Source of the DNA: Octopus vulgaris
Lineage: Eukaryota
Length of the DNA stretch: 64,000 nucleotides
Direction: 5' to 3'
Assembly: GCA_951406725.2 (NCBI GenBank)
Contig: OX597833.1
Location: forward strand, 15,996,001 to 16,060,000
Shown: positions 14,956 to 63,591 of the stretch, in pieces
How the letters are laid out: every line of letters begins with the position of its first letter
Position numbering within the stretch: the stretch's first letter is position 1
Notes under the pieces: generated by a model
Databases searched by the model: none
Seen by the model: the letters and a program-made list of their open reading frames with translations, nothing else
What the model was told of the DNA's origin: nothing
Position numbers and translations under genes: made by a program

Positions 14956-14991
<36 letters not shown>

Positions 14992-15085
14992 CTTTCTGTC
15001 TGTCCATTCAAAATGTGACCGCGTGTGTACCGTTGGCGATTTTTTTCCCTCCGTCTTCTCTTCTTTGGATCTTTCCTTTTCCTAT

Positions 15086-15120
15086 GTTTCTGACGAAGAG
15101 CTCCACTCGAAACGTTAAAC
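15086..15120 (+). ncRNA. Ultra-minimal hammerhead motif with no loop III, in a PLE-like module (about 14990-15225)
   Basis: gttt-CTGACGA-a gag ctcca ctc-GAAAC-GTT-aaac. Confidence 0.6.
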
Positions 15121-15219
15121 CCTCCTTCATTTCTTCTTTCCTGAGCGTCCAATAATACTATATTTGTTCCACGTCCTCGCGTTGTTGTGTTTTCTCTTTG
15201 TGTTTTCATGTTTGGACTA

Positions 15220-15255
<36 letters not shown>

Positions 15256-27150: not shown

Positions 27151-27597
27151 AGGCAGAAAACACAAAATATTCAAAAAAATTACAAATTCAACACAGCTAA
27201 CTCACCAGCCCAACCGCATTCCACAACACTCGTGCCTACCCTTATCACAATAAATATGTGGGACCACATGCTCACGCGATATCTTTTATTACTATCTCCA
27301 GTATGGGGCTTGTGAGCGCCAAAGACATACATGATGAAAGGATGTTCTCTCTATCCAATAACGTCAATGATAGCAGTCTGTTCAATCTCAGGCGTCTACA
27401 TCACACACTCTCGGTCACAGAGGTAGCTCATCTGTCGACTACCTTTCGCCAAAAGTAGCAATCTAGTTACCTTTAACGTGTATATACTGCATACTCATAT
27501 TCATACTTATGCGTCCATCCAACGGAAAACACCACCTGGGAGTCAGATTCGAAAAGAATTTCTCAAATAGCGTAGTTGTCAGTAAGATATATTATCC

Positions 27598-28013
27598 TAT
27601 TTTTTTATTGCCCACAAGGGGCTAAACATAGAGGGGACAAACAAGGACAGACAAGTGTATTAAGTCAATTACATCGACCCCAGTGCGTAACTGGTACTTA
27701 ATTTATCAACCCCGAAATGATGAAAGGAAAAGTCGACCTCAGCGGAATTTGAACTCAGAACGTAACGGCAGACGAAATAACTATTTCTTTATTACCCACA
27801 AGGGGCTAAACACAGAGGGGACAAGCAAGGACAGACATAGGTATTAAGTCGATTACATCGACCCCAGTGCGTAACTGGTACTTAATTTATCGACCCCGAA
27901 AGGATGGAAGACAAAGTCGACCTTGGCAGAATTTGAACTCAGAACGTAACGGCAGACGAAATACCGCTAAGCATTTCGCCCGACGTGCTAACGATTCTGC
28001 CAGCTCGCCGCCT
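27598..28013 (-). mobile_element. Group C SINE dimer
   Basis: One head plus one extra unit of about 184 bp. Flanking repeat cagtaagatatattatcct. Confidence 0.85.
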
Positions 28014-29051: not shown

Positions 29052-29115
29052 GACTAGGTTACCATCTTTGAAATCTTCAAACTGGCGGAGCTCACGAGAA
29101 TGAAATCCATATACT

Positions 29116-29714
29116 TATTTCTTTATTACCCACAAGGGGCTAAACACAGAGGGGACAAACAAGGACAGACATAGGTATTAAGTCGATTACATCGACCCCA
29201 GTGCGTAACTGGTACTTAATTTATCGACCCCGAAAGGATGAAAGGCAAAGTCGACCTCGGCGGAATTTGAACTCGCAACGTAACGGCAGACGAAATACCT
29301 ATTTCTTTATTACCCACAAGGGACTAAACACAGAGGGGACAAACAAGGACAGACATAGGTATTAATTCGATTACATCGATCCCAGTGCGTAACTGGTACT
29401 TAATTTATCGACCCCGAAAGGATGAAAGGCAAAGTCGACCTCGGCGGAATTTGAACTCGCAACGTAACGGCAGACGAAATACCTGTTTCTTTACTACCCA
29501 CAAGGGGCTTAACACAGAGAGGACAAACAAGGACAGACAAACGGATTAAATCGATTATATCGACCCCAGTGCGTAACTGGTACTTATTTAATCGACCCCG
29601 AAAGGATGAAAGGCAAAGTCGACCGCGGCGGAATTTGAACTCAGAACATAGCGGCAGACGAAATACCGCTAAGCATTTCGCCCGGCGTGCTAACGTTTCT
29701 GCCAGCTCGCCGCC
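29116..29714 (-). mobile_element. Group C SINE trimer
   Basis: Three units. TSD tgaaatccatatact on both sides. Confidence 0.9.
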
Positions 29715-38164: not shown

Positions 38165-40078
38165 ACTATAAAAAGGCGTTCGATAGTGTACCTCATGGAT
38201 TCTAAAAGTGATGGAAGTATACAAAGTATCCCCAACTCTCATCAAGTTTATGAAACAGCATGAATACATGGGAAACTACGTTGACACTGAACCATTCCAG
38301 TAGATCAATAACAAGCAGACCAATCAAAATCGAAAGTGGTATCTTCCAAGGGGACTCGCCGTCACCCTTAATATTCTGCTTGGCACTGGCACCATTAAGT
38401 ACCATGCTCAACTAAACCGAGTATGGATATGAGATCAAGAAGAAAAAAGGGAGTCATCTGTTCTACATGGATGATCTGAAAATGTACACAAAAAAAAATG
38501 ACGAACAACAAGGTCTACTTTCTACGGTTAAAAAGTTCGGTGAAGATATCAGGATGTAGTTTGGACTGGAGAAATGCGCGAAAGCCACTTTCATAAGAGG
38601 GAAACTGGCATGTTCTGCGGATATCCAAGTAGATAAAGAAGCAAGAATCCAGCACTGGACCAGGAAGAAGCATATAAATACCTTGGCAGAGACGAAAAGT
38701 AACGGCATAAAGCATTCAGCAATGAAAGAGAAGATTAGAAAAGAGTACTACAGGAGAGTACGGTTAGTAACAAAGACTGAACTCAACGCTACAAACAAAA
38801 TAGAAGCTATTAACACTCTTGCAGTACCAATCGTAGCTTACAGTTTCAACATACTCAACTGGCAAATGAGCGTAATAAAGAAGCTAGACTCCAGGACCAG
38901 AAAACTACTAACCATGGCTCGAATGAACCACACAACAGCGGACGCGAACAGGATTTATTTACCGAGAAGCATGGGAGGAAGAGGACTAACTCAATTAGAA
39001 TTATCTTACAAAACCACCTCTGTAGGATTAAATACATGTCTTGAGCTGTCAAAAGATCCTCTAATGAAGCTTGTGCACCAGCATGATAAAGTAAAGAAGC
39101 TATACTTGATATACAAAGAATCTGTACAGTTAAAGAAATAACTGATGACAGAGGAACCTAGGATGAAGATGAGTGAGAAAGTAACCCAGTTTGCTAAAGG
39201 AGTTAAGGAAGAGGTGAAAAAACAAGCCCAGAAGTACAAAGAAGAATGGCTAGAAAAACCGATGCATGGCCGATACACATGTAGAGTGAACAAACCAGAC
39301 GTAGAAAAACGAGACATTCCTGTATGGATGAAGAGCTCAGGACTGAAGGTTGAAACCGAAGGATTTATCATAGAAGCACAAGATCAAAGCTTGGCAACCA
39401 GAGCTTACCACAACAAAATAATGAACGAAGGCACTGACCCGAAATGCAGAATGTGTCATGAGAAGGATGAAACAGCGGACCACATCTTAACTGGATGCGC
39501 AGCGCTTGCAAAAACCGAATATATTCATAGACACGATAGAGTAGTGCAATATATCCATTGGAAGATATGTAAACACTACCAGCTTCCAACTTCAGAAAGA
39601 TGGTACCAGCATAAACCTGAACCTGTGACCGGAAAAGATGATGTAACAGTACTCTGGAACATGCCAATCAACAGCGATAAAGAAATCAAAGCAAACAGGC
39701 CGGACATAGTCATCAAAGATATGAAGAATAAGAAATGCTTAATGATAGATGTGACAGTATCATCAGAGAGAAATTAAAGAAGTTGAGAAGTTATTTAAGT
39801 ACAAAGACCTAGAAGTAGAAGTGACCAAGATGTGGGGAATGAAAGCAGCACAGCACCAGTGGTGATTGGAGCGTTAGGGCTAATTAAAAAGGGCCTTGAT
39901 AAGCAGCTCAACAAACTCCCTTGCAGTGTTAACGTGGGAGAACTTCAGAAAATAGTGTTGCTAGGTTCCGCACACATTTTACACCGTGTAGTCTCCATGA
40001 GATGAGGACCTGCTGTAACCCTAGGGACAAGGGATGACCCCGGTTCAGCAGAAGACAACGGACCATCTTTTATTTTAA

Positions 40079-40155
<77 letters not shown>
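38164..40155 (+). mobile_element. 5'-truncated R4/Dong-like non-LTR retrotransposon (RT, CCHC, RLE), pseudogenised
   Basis: DYKKAFDSVPH, GIFQGDSPSPLIFCLA, HLFYMDDLK, FGLEKCAK, CRMCHEKDETADHILTGC, RHD, NRPDIV, KYKDL. Contains stops and frameshifts. (TAA)n tail. Confidence 0.92.
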
Positions 40156-40160
<5 letters not shown>

Positions 40161-40780
40161 GGTATAAACACCATCCTGAAGCTGTGACTGGGGGAGAAAA
40201 TGTGTTGATTCTATGGAACTTCCCCGTGCATACCGACAAAACTATAAAAGCTAATAAACCGGATATTATTATAAAAGATCAGATAAAAAAGGTGTGTTTA
40301 TTAATTGACATGAGTATTCCTTGCGATCACAATATAGCAGCGAAAGAATTTGACAAGATTAGTAAATATAAAGACTTGCTAATAGAAATTGAAAAAAATG
40401 TGGCATCTCAAGGCGACTACAGTACCAGTGATTGTAGGATCTCTAGGAATGATAAAAAAAAAGGTACTGAAACCAATTTGAAAATGATACCAGGTTTACC
40501 ATCCCTACAAGAAGTGCAAAAAATCGTGTTAACTGGAACGACTCATGTACTGAGAAGAGCATTATCGATGTGAAAACAACATCCATTCATGAATTTGTTT
40601 ATTTATTAATTTTTTAAATATATGTTTTATCTATAAATTTGCGTGTGTAATCTGGGAATGCATACAATGAGCTTCTCTGCCCTAGGTTTACGGAAAACAC
40701 TCGGCGAGAAACGGAAGAAAATTTGAAGAAAGAAGAAAAAAAAAATAATAATAATAATAATAATATTAATAATAATAATA
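40156..40780 (+). mobile_element. Second, divergent R4/Dong-like 3' fragment
   Basis: KWYKHHPE..ILWNFPVHTDKTIKANKPDII..KISKYKDL..LQEVQKIVLTGTTHVLRR, then a 3' UTR and (TAA)n. Confidence 0.88.
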
Positions 40781-43779: not shown

Positions 43780-44875
43780 TTCATCATTACTGAAGGAAGG
43801 ACACCTCCTGGGACTCCTTCCACTGCTGTCTGTCTCTGGACAGTCATGGCCAAGTAGGCGCCAGAAAGCGGATGATATCTCGCCAACAAAAAGGCGGTGA
43901 GCTGGCAGAATCGTTAGCACGCCGGACGAAATGCGTAGCCGTATTTCGTCTGCAGTTACGTTCTGAGTTCAAATTCCGCCGAGGTCGACTTTGCCTTTCA
44001 TCCTTTCGGGGTCGATAAATTAAGTACCAGTCACGCACTGGGGTCGATATAATCGACTTAATCCGTCTGTCTGTCCTTGTTTGTCTCCTCTGTGTTTAGT
44101 CCCTTGTGGGTACTAAAGAAATAGGTATTTCGTCTGCCGTTACGTTCTGAGTTCAAATTCCGCCGAGGTCGACTTTGCCTTTCATCCTTTCGGGGTCGAT
44201 AAATTAAGTACCAGTTACGCACTGGGATCGATATAATCGACTTAATCCGTCTGTCTGTTCTTGTTTGTCCTCTGTGTTTAGCCCCTTGTGGGTACTAAAG
44301 AAATAGATATTTCGCCTGCCGTTACGTTCTGAGTTCAAATTCCGCCGAGGTCGACTTTGCCTTTCATCCTTTCGGGGTCGATAAATTAAGTATCAGTTAC
44401 GCACTGGGGTCGATATAATCGACTTAATCCGTCTGTCTGTCCTTGTTTGTCTCCTCTGTGTTTAGTCCCTTGTGGGTACTAAAGAAATTGGTATTTCGTC
44501 TGCCGTTACGTTCTGAGTTCAAATTCCGCCGAGGTCGACTTTGCCTTTCATCCTTTCGGGGTCGATAAATTAAGTACCAGTTACACACTGGGGTCGATAT
44601 AATCGACTTAATCCGTCTGTCTGTCCTTGTTTGTCTCCTCTGTGTTTAGTCCCTTGTGGGTAGTAAAGAAATAGATATCTCGCCAACTTGTCTTTGGGCA
44701 GGCTCTTGATCTTGTCCATTGTCTAGGTGTCCATTCCCCCACACTGATTGTCCTTCAGTTGCGCGATGTGGTCAGCCCTCTTACATTTCGTCTCCTTAAT
44801 GGTGCTTTTGATCTTGGTGATTCTCGTTTACTGTTGTATCCAGGCGTTGGTTTTTTTGTCCTGCTATAATTCTTT
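43780..44875 (-). mobile_element. Decayed RTE-like LINE 3' end interrupted by the SINE tetramer
   Basis: WIQQ*TRITKIKSTIKETK..ADHIAQLKDN.. and WRDIIRFLAPTWP*LSRDRQQWK. Confidence 0.6.
43893..44673 (+). mobile_element. Group C SINE tetramer
   Basis: One head and four body units of about 183 bp. 14-bp TSD gatatctcgccaac (43874-43887, 44674-44687). Confidence 0.92.
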
Positions 44876-45869: not shown

Positions 45870-47118
45870 GGAGAGAATAGATGGTCTATAGGTCAGTGTT
45901 GAGAAAATAGATGATCTATGGGTCAGTGTTGAGAGAATAGATGGTCTATGGGTCAGTGTTGAGAGAATAGATGGTCTATAGGTCAGTGTTGAGAAAATAG
46001 ATGATCTATGGGTCAGTGTTGAGAGAATAGATGGTCTATGGGTCAGTGTTGAGAGAATAGATGATCTATGGGTCAGTGTTGAGAGAATAGATGGTCTATG
46101 GGTCAGTGTTGAGAGAATAGATGATCTATGGGTCAGTGTTGAGAGAATAGATGGTCTATGGGTCAGTGTTGAGAGAATAGATGGTCTATGGGTCAGTGTT
46201 GAGAGAATAGATGGTCTGTGGGTCAGTGTTGAGAGAATAGATGGTCTATGTGTCAGTGTTGAGAGAATAGATGGTCTATGTGTCAGTGTTGAGAGAATAG
46301 ATGGTCTATGTGTCAGTGTTGAGAGAATAGATGGTCTATGTGTCAATGTTGAAAGAATAGATGGTCTATGAGTCAGTGTTGAGAGAATAGATGGTCTATG
46401 AGTCAGTGATCAGAGAATAGATGGTCTATGGGTCAGTGTTGAGAGAATAGATGGTCTATGGGTCAGTGTTGAGAGAATAGATGGTCTATGAGTCAGTGTT
46501 GAGCGAATAGATGGTCTATGGGTCAGTGTTGAGAGAATAGATGGTCTATGGGTCAGTGTTGATAGAATAGATGTTCTATGAGTCAGTGTTGAGAGAATAT
46601 ATGGTCGATGGTCTATGGGTCAGTGTTGAGAGAATAGATGGTCTATGTGTCAGTGTTGAAAGAATAGATGGTCTATGTGTCAGTGTTGAGAGAATAGATG
46701 GTCATGTGTCAGTGTTGAGAGAATAGATGGTCTATGTGTCAATGTTGAAAGAATAGATGGTCTATGAGTCAGTGTTGAGAGAATAGATGGTCTATGAGTC
46801 AGTGATCAGAGAATAGATGGTCTATGGGTCAGTGTTGAGAGAATAGATGGTCTATGGGTCAGTGTTGAGAGAATAGATGGTCTATGAGTCAGTGTTGAGC
46901 GAATAGATGGTCTATGGGTCAGTGTTGAGAGAATAGATGGTCTATGGGTCAGTGTTGATAGAATAGATGTTCTATGAGTCAGTGTTGAGAGAATATATGG
47001 TCGATGGTCTATGGGTCAGTGTTGAGAGAATAGATGGTCTATGAGTCAGTGTTGAGAGAATAGATAATCTATGAGTCAGCGTTGAGAGAATAGATGGTCT
47101 ATCAATCAGTGTTGAGAG
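45870..47118. repeat. 30-bp minisatellite, about 41 units (gagagaatagatggtctatgggtcagtgtt)
   Basis: Seen directly. Variant units recur with a 396-bp offset. Confidence 0.97.
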
Positions 47119-47614
47119 ATTTGTGTCTGGATAAGGGAGTATGCGTGCTTGTATGAAGGGTGGGGTAGGGTTCAAGTTGGATCGAAGTCTACGGCAGTCG
47201 TAGAAGAGAAACGAGGATACATTAGCGGGTTAATTATGAGTATCTTGGAGAGTGTAAATAGTGGCGGCATCCTGAAAACTTACGATAAAGAGCTGCCAGG
47301 TGCCGCGATCCCATGCTTGTAACCGTTCATTCTATATTAGGAACACATGTGGCCAGAAGGTGAAGTTAAACTAGGCAGCATGATGGACATACTTCTCAGA
47401 GTAAAGAGGGATCCGCGAATCATTTCTAACAGGACTACACGAGAGAGGTAGTAACGGAACGTATAATTCCGTTACTTTATAAGCGGCACAGTGCCACTGG
47501 GTTGTTCGTTAAATTCGTTCGTTTCGTTCCAATGTTTGAATTAACACGAGAAATATTTTTATCATAGTGTTTCAGGGTTTTACATATACATGTATGTGTA
47601 TATACATATATATA

Positions 47615-49670: not shown

Positions 49671-49741
<71 letters not shown>

Positions 49742-49746
<5 letters not shown>

Positions 49747-49886
49747 AAGAAATGAGGTACTCAGAAATTCGGATGGTTTTATATTTACAGATATTTATTT
49801 GTAAATTACATGTTTTTATAGATCATATATCTTAGAAATGAATACCTGTAAATATAAAACCATCCGAATTTTTTAGTACCTCATTT
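49742..49886. repeat. Imperfect inverted repeat (arms about 60 bp) in (TA)n
   Basis: agaagaaatgaggtact..ttcggatggttttatatttacag versus ctgtaaatataaaaccatccgaa..agtacctcatttcttct. Confidence 0.85.
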
Positions 49887-49924
49887 CTTCTAATATAAAA
49901 TACCTGTACATCATCTCCAAAACT

Positions 49925-50262: not shown

Positions 50263-50685
50263 TGTGGAAGCACTCCGTCGGTTACAACGACGAGGGTTCC
50301 GGTTGATCCGATCAACGGAACAGCCTGCTCGTGAAATTAATGTGCAAGTGGCTGAGCACTCCACAGACACGTGTACCCTTAACGCAGTTCTCGGGCATAT
50401 TCAGCGTGATACAGAGAGTGACAAGGCCGGCCCTTTGAAATACAGGTACAACAGAAACAGGAAGTAAGAGAGAGAAAAAGTTGTGGTGAAAGAGTACAGC
50501 AGGGATCACCACCATCCCCTGCCGGAGCCTCGTGGAGCTTTAGGTGTTTTCGCTCAATAAACACTCACAAGGCCCGGTCTGGGAATCGAAACCGCGATCC
50601 TACGACCGCGAGTCCGCTGCCTTAACCACTGGGTCATTGCGCCCCCACATAGTCCGCTGCCCTAACCACTGGGCCATTGCGCCTC

Positions 50686-50688
<3 letters not shown>
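50263..50688 (-). mobile_element. Group A2 SINE with duplicated 5' head
   Basis: Reverse complement of 49199-49582. The first roughly 36 nt are repeated. Confidence 0.85.
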
Positions 50689-50721
<33 letters not shown>

Positions 50722-50724
<3 letters not shown>

Positions 50725-51394
50725 TTAACAATTAAGGACAACTTCTTAATAAGGAATCTTAACAAGAAATTATCAGGTAGATAGCGTGAAAAACCTCATA
50801 AGAGAAAAAATTTCGAAAATAATTCTTTCTTATTGAACATATTAATTTATATATAGAGGGCATTATTATACATACATGCCACACGCTACGAGGGACAATT
50901 AGTCATTTCTACCAAAAAATTTTACTTATCATACCCAATGCAATTTTTACAAAGCAAGACATTTAAAAATGAATTTAATCTTGTATCACCTGTGATTTCG
51001 TACTTACCGCCATTAGCGACCGTACTCGTCAGCAAGATTGATTCTGAACATATCATAAATAAACGACCAGTCTCGTCAAAACCAAACTGCTAACTGCTCG
51101 ATCCCAACGAAGCACATAGAGAAGTTTACATATAATACATCCGGTAAATGGCAGGCTTCTTCGAATTGCATTTCGGGTAGGAAAAGTTTTTTCGGAATAA
51201 AATTATTTAACAATTAAGGACAACTTCTTAATAAGGAATCTTAACAAGAAATTATCAGGTAAATAGCGTGAAAAACCTCATAAGAGAAAAAATTTCGAAA
51301 ATAATTCTTTCTTATTGAACATATTAATTTATATATAGAGGGCATTATTATACATACATGCCACACGCTACGAGGGACAATTAGTCATTTCTAC
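50722..51394 (-). mobile_element. Partial tandem repeat (482-bp period, 191-bp direct repeats) carrying a hammerhead: retrozyme or PLE pseudo-LTR
   Basis: 50722-50912 equals 51204-51394 with one visible mismatch. No ORF in the supplied track. Microsatellite flanks. Confidence 0.8.
50977..51039 (-). ncRNA. Canonical type I hammerhead ribozyme
   Basis: aatcttg-CTGACGA-gtac..gtac-GAAA-tca cagg tg-ATA-caagatt. 7-bp stem I, G-C closed stem II, paired stem III, AUA site. Confidence 0.85.
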
Positions 51395-51442
51395 GAGGGA
51401 CAATTAGTCGCGTAGATAGATAGATAGATCTATAGATATCTC

Positions 51443-51518
<76 letters not shown>

Positions 51519-57962: not shown

Positions 57963-58082
57963 TATGTGTGTGTATGTATTATGCATATATGTTTATATAT
58001 CTATGTATTAGCATATCTATAAATATAAATTATTTTTAATGAATAGTCTCTTATAGTACATATATTTGAGAATACCTGTACA

Positions 58083-58480
58083 GGCGCAGGAGTGGCTGTG
58101 TGGTAAGTAGCTTGCTAACCAACCACATGGTTCCGGGTTCAGTCCCACTGCGTGGCACCTTGGGCAAGTGTCTTCTGCTATAGCCCCGGGCCGACCAATG
58201 TCTTGTGAGTGGATTTGGTAGACGGGAACTGAAAGAAGCCTGTCGTATATATGTATATGTATGTATGTGTGTGTCTGTTTGTCCCCCTACCATTGCTTGA
58301 CAACCGACGCTGGTGTGTTTACGTCCCCGTAACTTAGCGGTTCGGCAAAAGAGATTGATAGAATAAGTACTGGGCTTACAAAGAATAAGTCCCGGGGTCG
58401 ATTTGCTCGACTAAAGGCGATGCTCAAGCATGGCCGTAGTCAAATGACTGAAACAAGTAAAAGAGTAAAAGAGTAAAGAG
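58083..58480 (+). mobile_element. Full-length group B SINE
   Basis: Consensus match, tail (gtaaaaga)n. Confidence 0.9.
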
Positions 58481-63316: not shown

Positions 63317-63591
63317 TATAATATTAATTCGAGACAAAACCACTATTTTGCAAAACAAACAAGGAAAGACTTAATCAATACATAAAAATTTTTAATATAA
63401 AGAAATAACCGCCACTACAATCGTTTCATGTCTTCAATGACATTCGTCAGGTGGATTTTCGATCTCCTAATCTTGTTTGTTTTGCAAAATAGTGGTCTTG
63501 TCTCGAATTAATATTATATAATATTTTACTATAAAATTGGATTTAATCCTAAATCTGATTTTTTCCCTGTAAATTTGGATTTATTCCCTAA

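Follow-up and report, generated by a model that had tools for sequence, protein, structure and literature searches.

A likely non-LTR retrozyme of octopus: a 1.4-unit insertion with a single hammerhead ribozyme beside a TA microsatellite

The stretch of Octopus vulgaris DNA analysed here (the window, 64 kb) contains, on its minus strand, a 482-base repeat unit that is present once in the window as an insertion of 1.4 units. The insertion is made of two copies of a segment A that enclose a segment B with a ribozyme, and it lies between two microsatellites. Its features, in coordinates of the window, are:

50690..50721, no strand: (CA)n(TA)n target adjoining the insertion's 3' end, with (TA)n matched by the final 2-3 nt of the element
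50722..51409, minus strand: whole insertion, 1.4 units, comprising a 19-nt 5' duplication, segment A, segment B and segment A
50722..50912, minus strand: 191-nt 3' copy of segment A, with (TA)n directly beyond its 3' end
50737..50777, minus strand: long predicted hairpin that stops ~15 nt short of the 3' end of the insertion
50913..51203, minus strand: segment B, 291 nt, containing the ribozyme; predicted to form a single long rod closed at ~51203/50904
50977..51039, minus strand: type I hammerhead, core at 51032-51026, predicted cut between 50984 and 50983
51069..51104, minus strand: hypervariable stretch with 21 variable sites, predicted in this copy to pair with and mask the 5' half of the ribozyme
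51204..51394, minus strand: segment A, 5' copy, with a mismatch at 51262
51391..51409, minus strand: direct duplication of the preceding sequence, 19 nt, at the 5' junction, with 4 nt of shared microhomology
51413..51516, no strand: (TAGA)n microsatellite on the 5' side of the insertion

The direct repeats (50722-50912 and 51204-51394, 191 nt each) have a single mismatch (50780 G / 51262 A) and a period of 482; sequence comparison recovered the same coordinates for the 482-bp period and the 191-bp repeats with one differing base that had been described in an earlier note on this DNA. Along the ribozyme strand, the 19-nt duplicated piece comes first, and then come segment A, the ribozyme-bearing segment B, a second copy of segment A, and (TA)n. 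The duplicated piece, which is absent from the earlier note, extends the element to ~51409 and is likely a template slip at termination. No target-site duplication is discernible at the ends of the insertion at this locus. A partial tandem whose 3' end lies in a (TA)n target, as found at this one locus, is a feature of Penelope pseudo-LTRs. The letter at 51262 is probably the derived one of the mismatch, because a public sequencing run (X1, see below) agrees with 50780. At least two further changes (51084 and 51118) appear private to this copy, which fits a young, not brand-new, insertion, and the suggestion that the element is probably young holds in that form. Family variants in three public runs (X8, X10, and X15) carry a short internal duplication at 50857-50885 (joint 50881 to 50865), which adjoins the site of the 19-nt 5' duplication of this copy and marks a slippage hot spot in segment A.

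The unit has no coding capacity that we could recognise. Its longest stop-to-stop frames are 78 aa on the plus strand and 55 aa on the minus strand, and a Pfam search of seven unit frames returned no match better than E 0.13, in agreement with the earlier observation that there is no ORF. An ORF for RT and GIY-YIG flanking the unit, which is a feature of pseudo-LTRs, was found neither at the locus, nor among 150 of the 203 longer frames of the window that were searched for RT and GIY-YIG families, nor as an abundant attachment in the sequencing runs. Segment A holds a TATA-like word at 50857-50848 (minus strand). Newt satellite 2 is described as carrying an snRNA promoter (PMC2220036, in part), and an snRNA-type promoter in segment A was considered and dropped as unsupported, the upstream word lacking the invariant fly core given in PMC1761439 (in part). 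No mollusc snRNA-promoter consensus was found in the literature. A sigma-70 promoter scan of the unit was disregarded, as it does not apply to animal DNA.

The hammerhead of segment B (minus strand, 51039-50977) comprises a helix I of 7 bp, the core CUGACGA, GAAA, the cleavage triplet AUA, a helix II of 4 bp that continues through an internal loop into ~5 more pairs, and a helix III of 4-5 bp. A motif scan of both strands of the 64 kb reproduced exactly the cleavage position that had been predicted between 50984 and 50983 on the minus strand, and this hammerhead was the top of two matches, consistent with its description as the best-formed ribozyme in the window. Block-wise dinucleotide shuffling of the window, repeated 100 times, produced no motif with helices of at least 7/4/5 pairs. 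The both-strand scan found no ribozyme on the opposite strand of the unit. Rfam at gathering score gave 0 matches in the window, and its hammerhead families gave none in 50600-51500 at E up to 10; the long helices II and III are the likely cause of this miss. A type I hammerhead with a full core and three helices is a feature of retrozymes, and here the core is conserved across copies. The unit also has a U 7 nt beyond the cut, and the helix II loop has an A at its 3' end, an arrangement that forms an activating trans-Hoogsteen contact in known hammerheads (PMC9217987, in part) and that is here only a resemblance. The 1.4-mer contains one hammerhead only, a point that had not been recorded before. 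Two are needed to release a monomer, so a unit-length monomer cannot be excised here, and the proposal that the element produces an RNA of ~482 nt does not apply to this locus.

The window is made of animal repeat DNA and holds several other repeats. A small hammerhead at 63454-63412 (helices 4/5/3), within a long inverted repeat between (TA)n tracts (~63320-63590, minus strand), bears no relation to the 482-base unit. A further element, of 235 bp and without an ORF (14990-15224, plus strand), also lies between (TA)n tracts. It has a minimal-hammerhead-like core at 15090, with a short helix II and no helix III, and resembles a solo Penelope pseudo-LTR from a different family. The broken C-terminal part of a non-LTR retrotransposon (38560-40573, plus strand; zf-RVT, E 4.7e-05) lies beside (AAT)n; it has relatives in corals and a sea cucumber, and it may be R4/Dong-like. 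A 184-bp SINE-like unit forms tandem arrays of 2-4 copies at 27597-27963, 29111-29667, and 43941-44682 and is also dispersed in the window. By eye, an inverted-repeat (MITE-like) element of ~160 bp lies between TA tracts at 49740-49900. A 30-bp minisatellite at 45871-47119 has 41 copies and is open in some frames, and a frame derived from a repeat (58054-58410) shares 88% identity with a predicted protein of Octopus vulgaris over one third of its length, its only match, which makes an octopus host likely.

Folded as a circle, the minus strand of the unit (G+C 33%) is predicted to reach -117.8 kcal/mol, with z scores of -5.1 (60 shuffles) and -6.2 (30 shuffles), and the plus-strand circle has a z of -1.8; z stayed above -3 in 12 of 13 background windows, and the one that fell lower was a 30-bp tandem repeat. 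The predicted circle is thus highly self-paired on the ribozyme strand, as is characteristic of retrozymes, and the strand asymmetry of folding suggests selection on the RNA. Segment B is predicted to fold into one long rod that masks the ribozyme, and in the model the active hammerhead fold would lie 1.4 kcal/mol above this masked rod. In an isolated 88-nt piece (51052-50965), the hammerhead is the minimum-energy fold, at 3.6% of the ensemble and z -0.46. The earlier note had called the hammerhead intact, which is accurate for its sequence, which is complete, and less so for its predicted fold, the three active helices forming at a probability of ~0.03-0.14 in the context of the unit.

The unit or part of it is present in 20 of the 24 public sequencing runs listed, under 11 organism labels, and eight of the 24 hold half or more of its words. 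Contigs of four runs (X1, X8, X10, and X15) were placed on the monomer at 80% likeness; X8 and X10 are DNA-type runs, X15 is only guessed to be RNA, X1 is of undeclared kind, and no listed holder is recorded as RNA, which we count as evidence in neither direction. Runs X17-X20, which hold a small share, and a gap in the X15 coverage at 51011-51027 were left out of the evidence. The head-to-tail joint (51203 to 50722) occurs in all four aligned runs, exactly in X15, X1, and X10, and in slightly variant form in X8. The DNA-type runs yielded 1191 and 1298 contigs, many of them at depths in the hundreds or thousands, which indicates a large family with subfamilies, contig depth not being the same as copy number. 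The family thus consists of a multi-copy, head-to-tail unit of a few hundred bases with a G+C below 50% (0.328), which is a further feature of retrozymes. Recurrence of the same joint in other samples largely refutes an origin of this 1.4-mer as a one-off, produced from a solo element by a later local DNA duplication or by an assembly slip. The region is microsatellite-rich and has other local duplications (e.g., 50611-50689), as such an origin would predict; however, one base distinguishes the two repeats and a separate 19-nt duplication marks the 5' end, and we regard this origin as extremely improbable.

The ribozyme is conserved across the family. Only one of the 32 variable sites listed for segment B falls inside the 63-nt ribozyme (hypergeometric P 0.003, a value that is biased because copies less than 80% alike were left out and the sites are those listed), and this sole listed substitution, at 51028, is at the free core position 7. 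One diverged contig has changed helices I and II and retains GAAA, the helix III arms, and the triplet at the cleavage site. The predicted masking rod is not maintained among family variants: of 26 listed substitutions at its paired sites, 17 break the pair and 9 keep it (5.7 expected by chance), and family variants mostly break the pairing of 51069-51104 with the ribozyme's 5' half. A conserved anti-ribozyme switch, which we considered, is unsupported, given that 17 of those 26 substitutions disrupt pairing, although partner changes in diverged subfamilies would have escaped the listing. In both DNA runs, segment A together with 51144-51203 is the most deeply covered block, and the ribozyme part lies well below segment A (by ~10-50x) and 51130-51197 in depth. 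Coverage falls at 50909-50925, the same place where the second pass of this copy ends, a drop to which diverged subfamilies and short A-only stubs may each contribute. The deep block (segment A and 51144-51203) is likely the part recognised by a partner reverse transcriptase.

Contigs that continue into unlike sequence make up a share of 0 in X8, 0 in X10, and 0.03 in X15; the share of 0.6 in X1 comes from two short contigs of three. Among the 19 loose ends listed (there are 162 further, and 7 further variants), most look like diverged forms of the unit itself, and two (X15 at 50896, X10 at 51143) could not be placed. The earlier note had named constant attachment of the unit to a Penelope-like ORF, with no multimers or circles, as evidence against its reading. 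Among the aligned contigs no attached ORF was seen, within the scope of short contigs, which in a repeat conceal rare attachments and cannot count the units per array. An abundant ORF attached to the unit is unlikely, and a rare ORF-bearing master is possible.

These data bear on whether the unit could instead be plain pseudo-LTR debris, that is, a terminal repeat belonging to a Penelope-like element with an ORF, whose short tandems arise from repeated template jumps on the RNA of that element and lack an independent life cycle. Penelope-like elements normally show partial tandems and 5' truncation (PMC8557442, in part), retrozyme sequences are described as related to pseudo-LTRs (bioRxiv 10.64898/2026.07.22.740005, in part), and the excess depth of segment A is what 3'-biased truncation would give. 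Yet the joint recurs in four of four runs and closes into a loop in X1, no contig of either DNA run continues into unlike sequence, and the 4-5-bp helix III sets the ribozyme apart from the minimal motifs that animal Penelope elements typically carry (PMC4209133, in part). The unit also lacks a coding remnant, and the 150 of 203 longer window frames searched contain no RT or GIY-YIG. Debris of this kind is, in our estimation, rather unlikely. The earlier description of a retrozyme-like or Penelope-dependent non-coding unit is supported for the unit itself, whose joint recurs, whose loop closes in one run, and which has no attached ORF seen, and is unsupported where it concerns RNA production at this locus.

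The closed loop in X1 is a single 516-nt contig that runs from 50904 to 51203 and on from 50722 to 50934, overlapping itself by 30-31 letters. It is 485-486 nt long and ~97.5% like the window (5 substitutions and 6-7 gap letters), and it can be derived from either a circle or a DNA tandem. X1 has a flat depth of 6.12 and shows neither the cloud of variant contigs nor the segment A excess of the DNA runs. Eight runs of undeclared kind (X1-X7 and X9), each under a different organism label, contain 0.49-0.59 of the words of the unit, and X1 alone among them was aligned; an abundant contaminating RNA, or related species that carry few copies, would account for their signal. A viroid-like RNA circle, copied from RNA to RNA or moving between species and leaving genomic copies as reverse-transcribed by-products, would fit the single clean loop of X1 (without the 1191-1298 variant contigs), the spread of the signal over eight labels, and the strongly self-paired, strand-specific fold. 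We nevertheless consider it very unlikely: the opposite strand has no ribozyme, the many genomic subfamilies account for the unit without replication, and cross-contamination or related species with few copies is a plainer account of eight runs of which one was aligned. A related model supposes that the unit is a circular RNA, abundant in cephalopods, whose ribozyme switches between two states (masked rod and active fold); it would exist apart from the genomic copies, would appear as a single near-identical 485-nt loop in samples that bear many different organism labels, and would replicate at the RNA level or have passed recently between species. This model strikes us as highly doubtful. Motif scans of viral and metagenome sequences (9 and 116 loci; 43 of 64 metagenome parts) gave 0 of 125 loci that resemble the unit (blastn, E 1e-3); two of these loci had marginal helices and were taken as chance. 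No exact match to 22-23-nt words of segment A turned up in contigs of viral and prokaryote genomes.

The closest likeness is to the non-LTR retrozymes of metazoans, above all the 350-390-bp units of Mytilus (PMC7229834, in part), and is known here from sequence-level features. These units, like that of the octopus, are non-coding, low in G+C, arranged head-to-tail, and a few hundred bases long, with one type I hammerhead per unit, a self-paired predicted circle, and a mollusc host. The octopus unit is larger (482-486 nt, against 150-450 in the metazoan retrozymes), its helix III has 4-5 bp where 1-2 bp are usual, and its helix II is extended through an internal loop (PMC7229834, in part). Masking, noted in the available part of that paper only for some mussel circles, is predicted for the ribozyme of the octopus copy, unlike most animal retrozymes. 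These differences from described animal families (larger unit, extended helix II, stable helix III, and predicted masking) are modest.

The insertion also resembles the monomer derivatives of vertebrates (Li, Clavereau and Pollet 2026, bioRxiv 10.64898/2026.07.22.740005, in part), which are likewise dispersed single-unit hammerhead repeat copies, in a size range (51-972) that includes it, and which are proposed, as the octopus unit is, to be non-autonomous to Penelope-like elements. No mollusc is among the classes listed in the available part of that survey. Its active class requires two complete hammerheads in consecutive units; the octopus locus lacks these and is, by this criterion, a monomer-type derivative and not an active retrozyme. 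With the pseudo-LTRs of EN+ Penelope-like elements (PMC4209133 and PMC8557442, both in part; Poseidon PAc, PMC11167929), the insertion shares a partial tandem, a hammerhead upstream of the 3' end, an AT-rich or (TA)n target, and no visible target-site duplication. In contrast to these, the octopus unit has no ORF and its hammerhead is not of the minimal type, and its 3' end is 262 nt past the cut, compared with ~85-92 nt in PAc (subtracted from figures in PMC11167929). No account of cephalopod retrozymes was found in the literature, although the supplements of PMC7229834 or of the bioRxiv paper might list cephalopods; the giant-squid genome paper lists 235 Rfam hammerhead matches, which it does not analyse.

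We conclude that the locus is a recent 1.4-unit insertion of a multi-copy, non-coding 482-base unit; the unit is likely an octopus non-LTR retrozyme and was likely copied into a TA microsatellite by the enzyme of a Penelope-like element. Animal retrozymes are tandem type I hammerhead repeats that are expressed as circles, are ligated by RtcB in vitro, and are proposed to use Penelope-type enzymes (PMC7229834, in part). Partial tandems, (TA)n targets, an internal start of reverse transcription, and nicking of AT-rich DNA are Penelope traits (PMC8557442, in part; PMC11167929), and Neptune and Naiad prefer microsatellites (PMC8557442, in part). A Poseidon protein nicks AT-rich DNA, starts copying inside its own RNA, requires sequence lying ~55 nt past the start site, and accepts uncut and cut RNA equally well (PMC11167929).

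In the cycle that we propose, master arrays of two or more units would be transcribed on the ribozyme strand, their hammerheads would cleave the transcripts into monomers, and a host ligase would close these. A Penelope-type endonuclease would nick (TA)n, and the reverse transcriptase would start inside the RNA at the site equivalent to 50722, 262 nt downstream of the cut. The deep block reaches ~60 nt past this start site (51203-51144), which parallels the ~55 nt that Poseidon needs. Copying would run through A, B, and then A again, crossing the ribozyme site once; because of this single crossing, the template would have been a closed circle, which we favour slightly, or an uncut multimer, which is nearly as probable. 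The second pass would halt near the base of the predicted B rod, slip back 19 nt, and join the target. The resulting single-ribozyme copy would be a product of the cycle and not a source of circles. Counting against this reading, eight of nine predicted Xenopus retrozymes failed to cleave in vitro (bioRxiv 10.64898/2026.07.22.740005, in part).

The octopus unit leaves the known picture of what retrozymes are unchanged, and it would extend non-LTR retrozymes to octopuses. As its ribozyme is invisible to Rfam, families of this kind are under-counted. The young 1.4-mer preserves a footprint (a 3' end fixed in (TA)n, a single pass across the cut site, and a stop with a template slip) of a kind that can serve to test whether the circles of retrozymes are copied by Penelope-type enzymes, a proposal that is still unproven.
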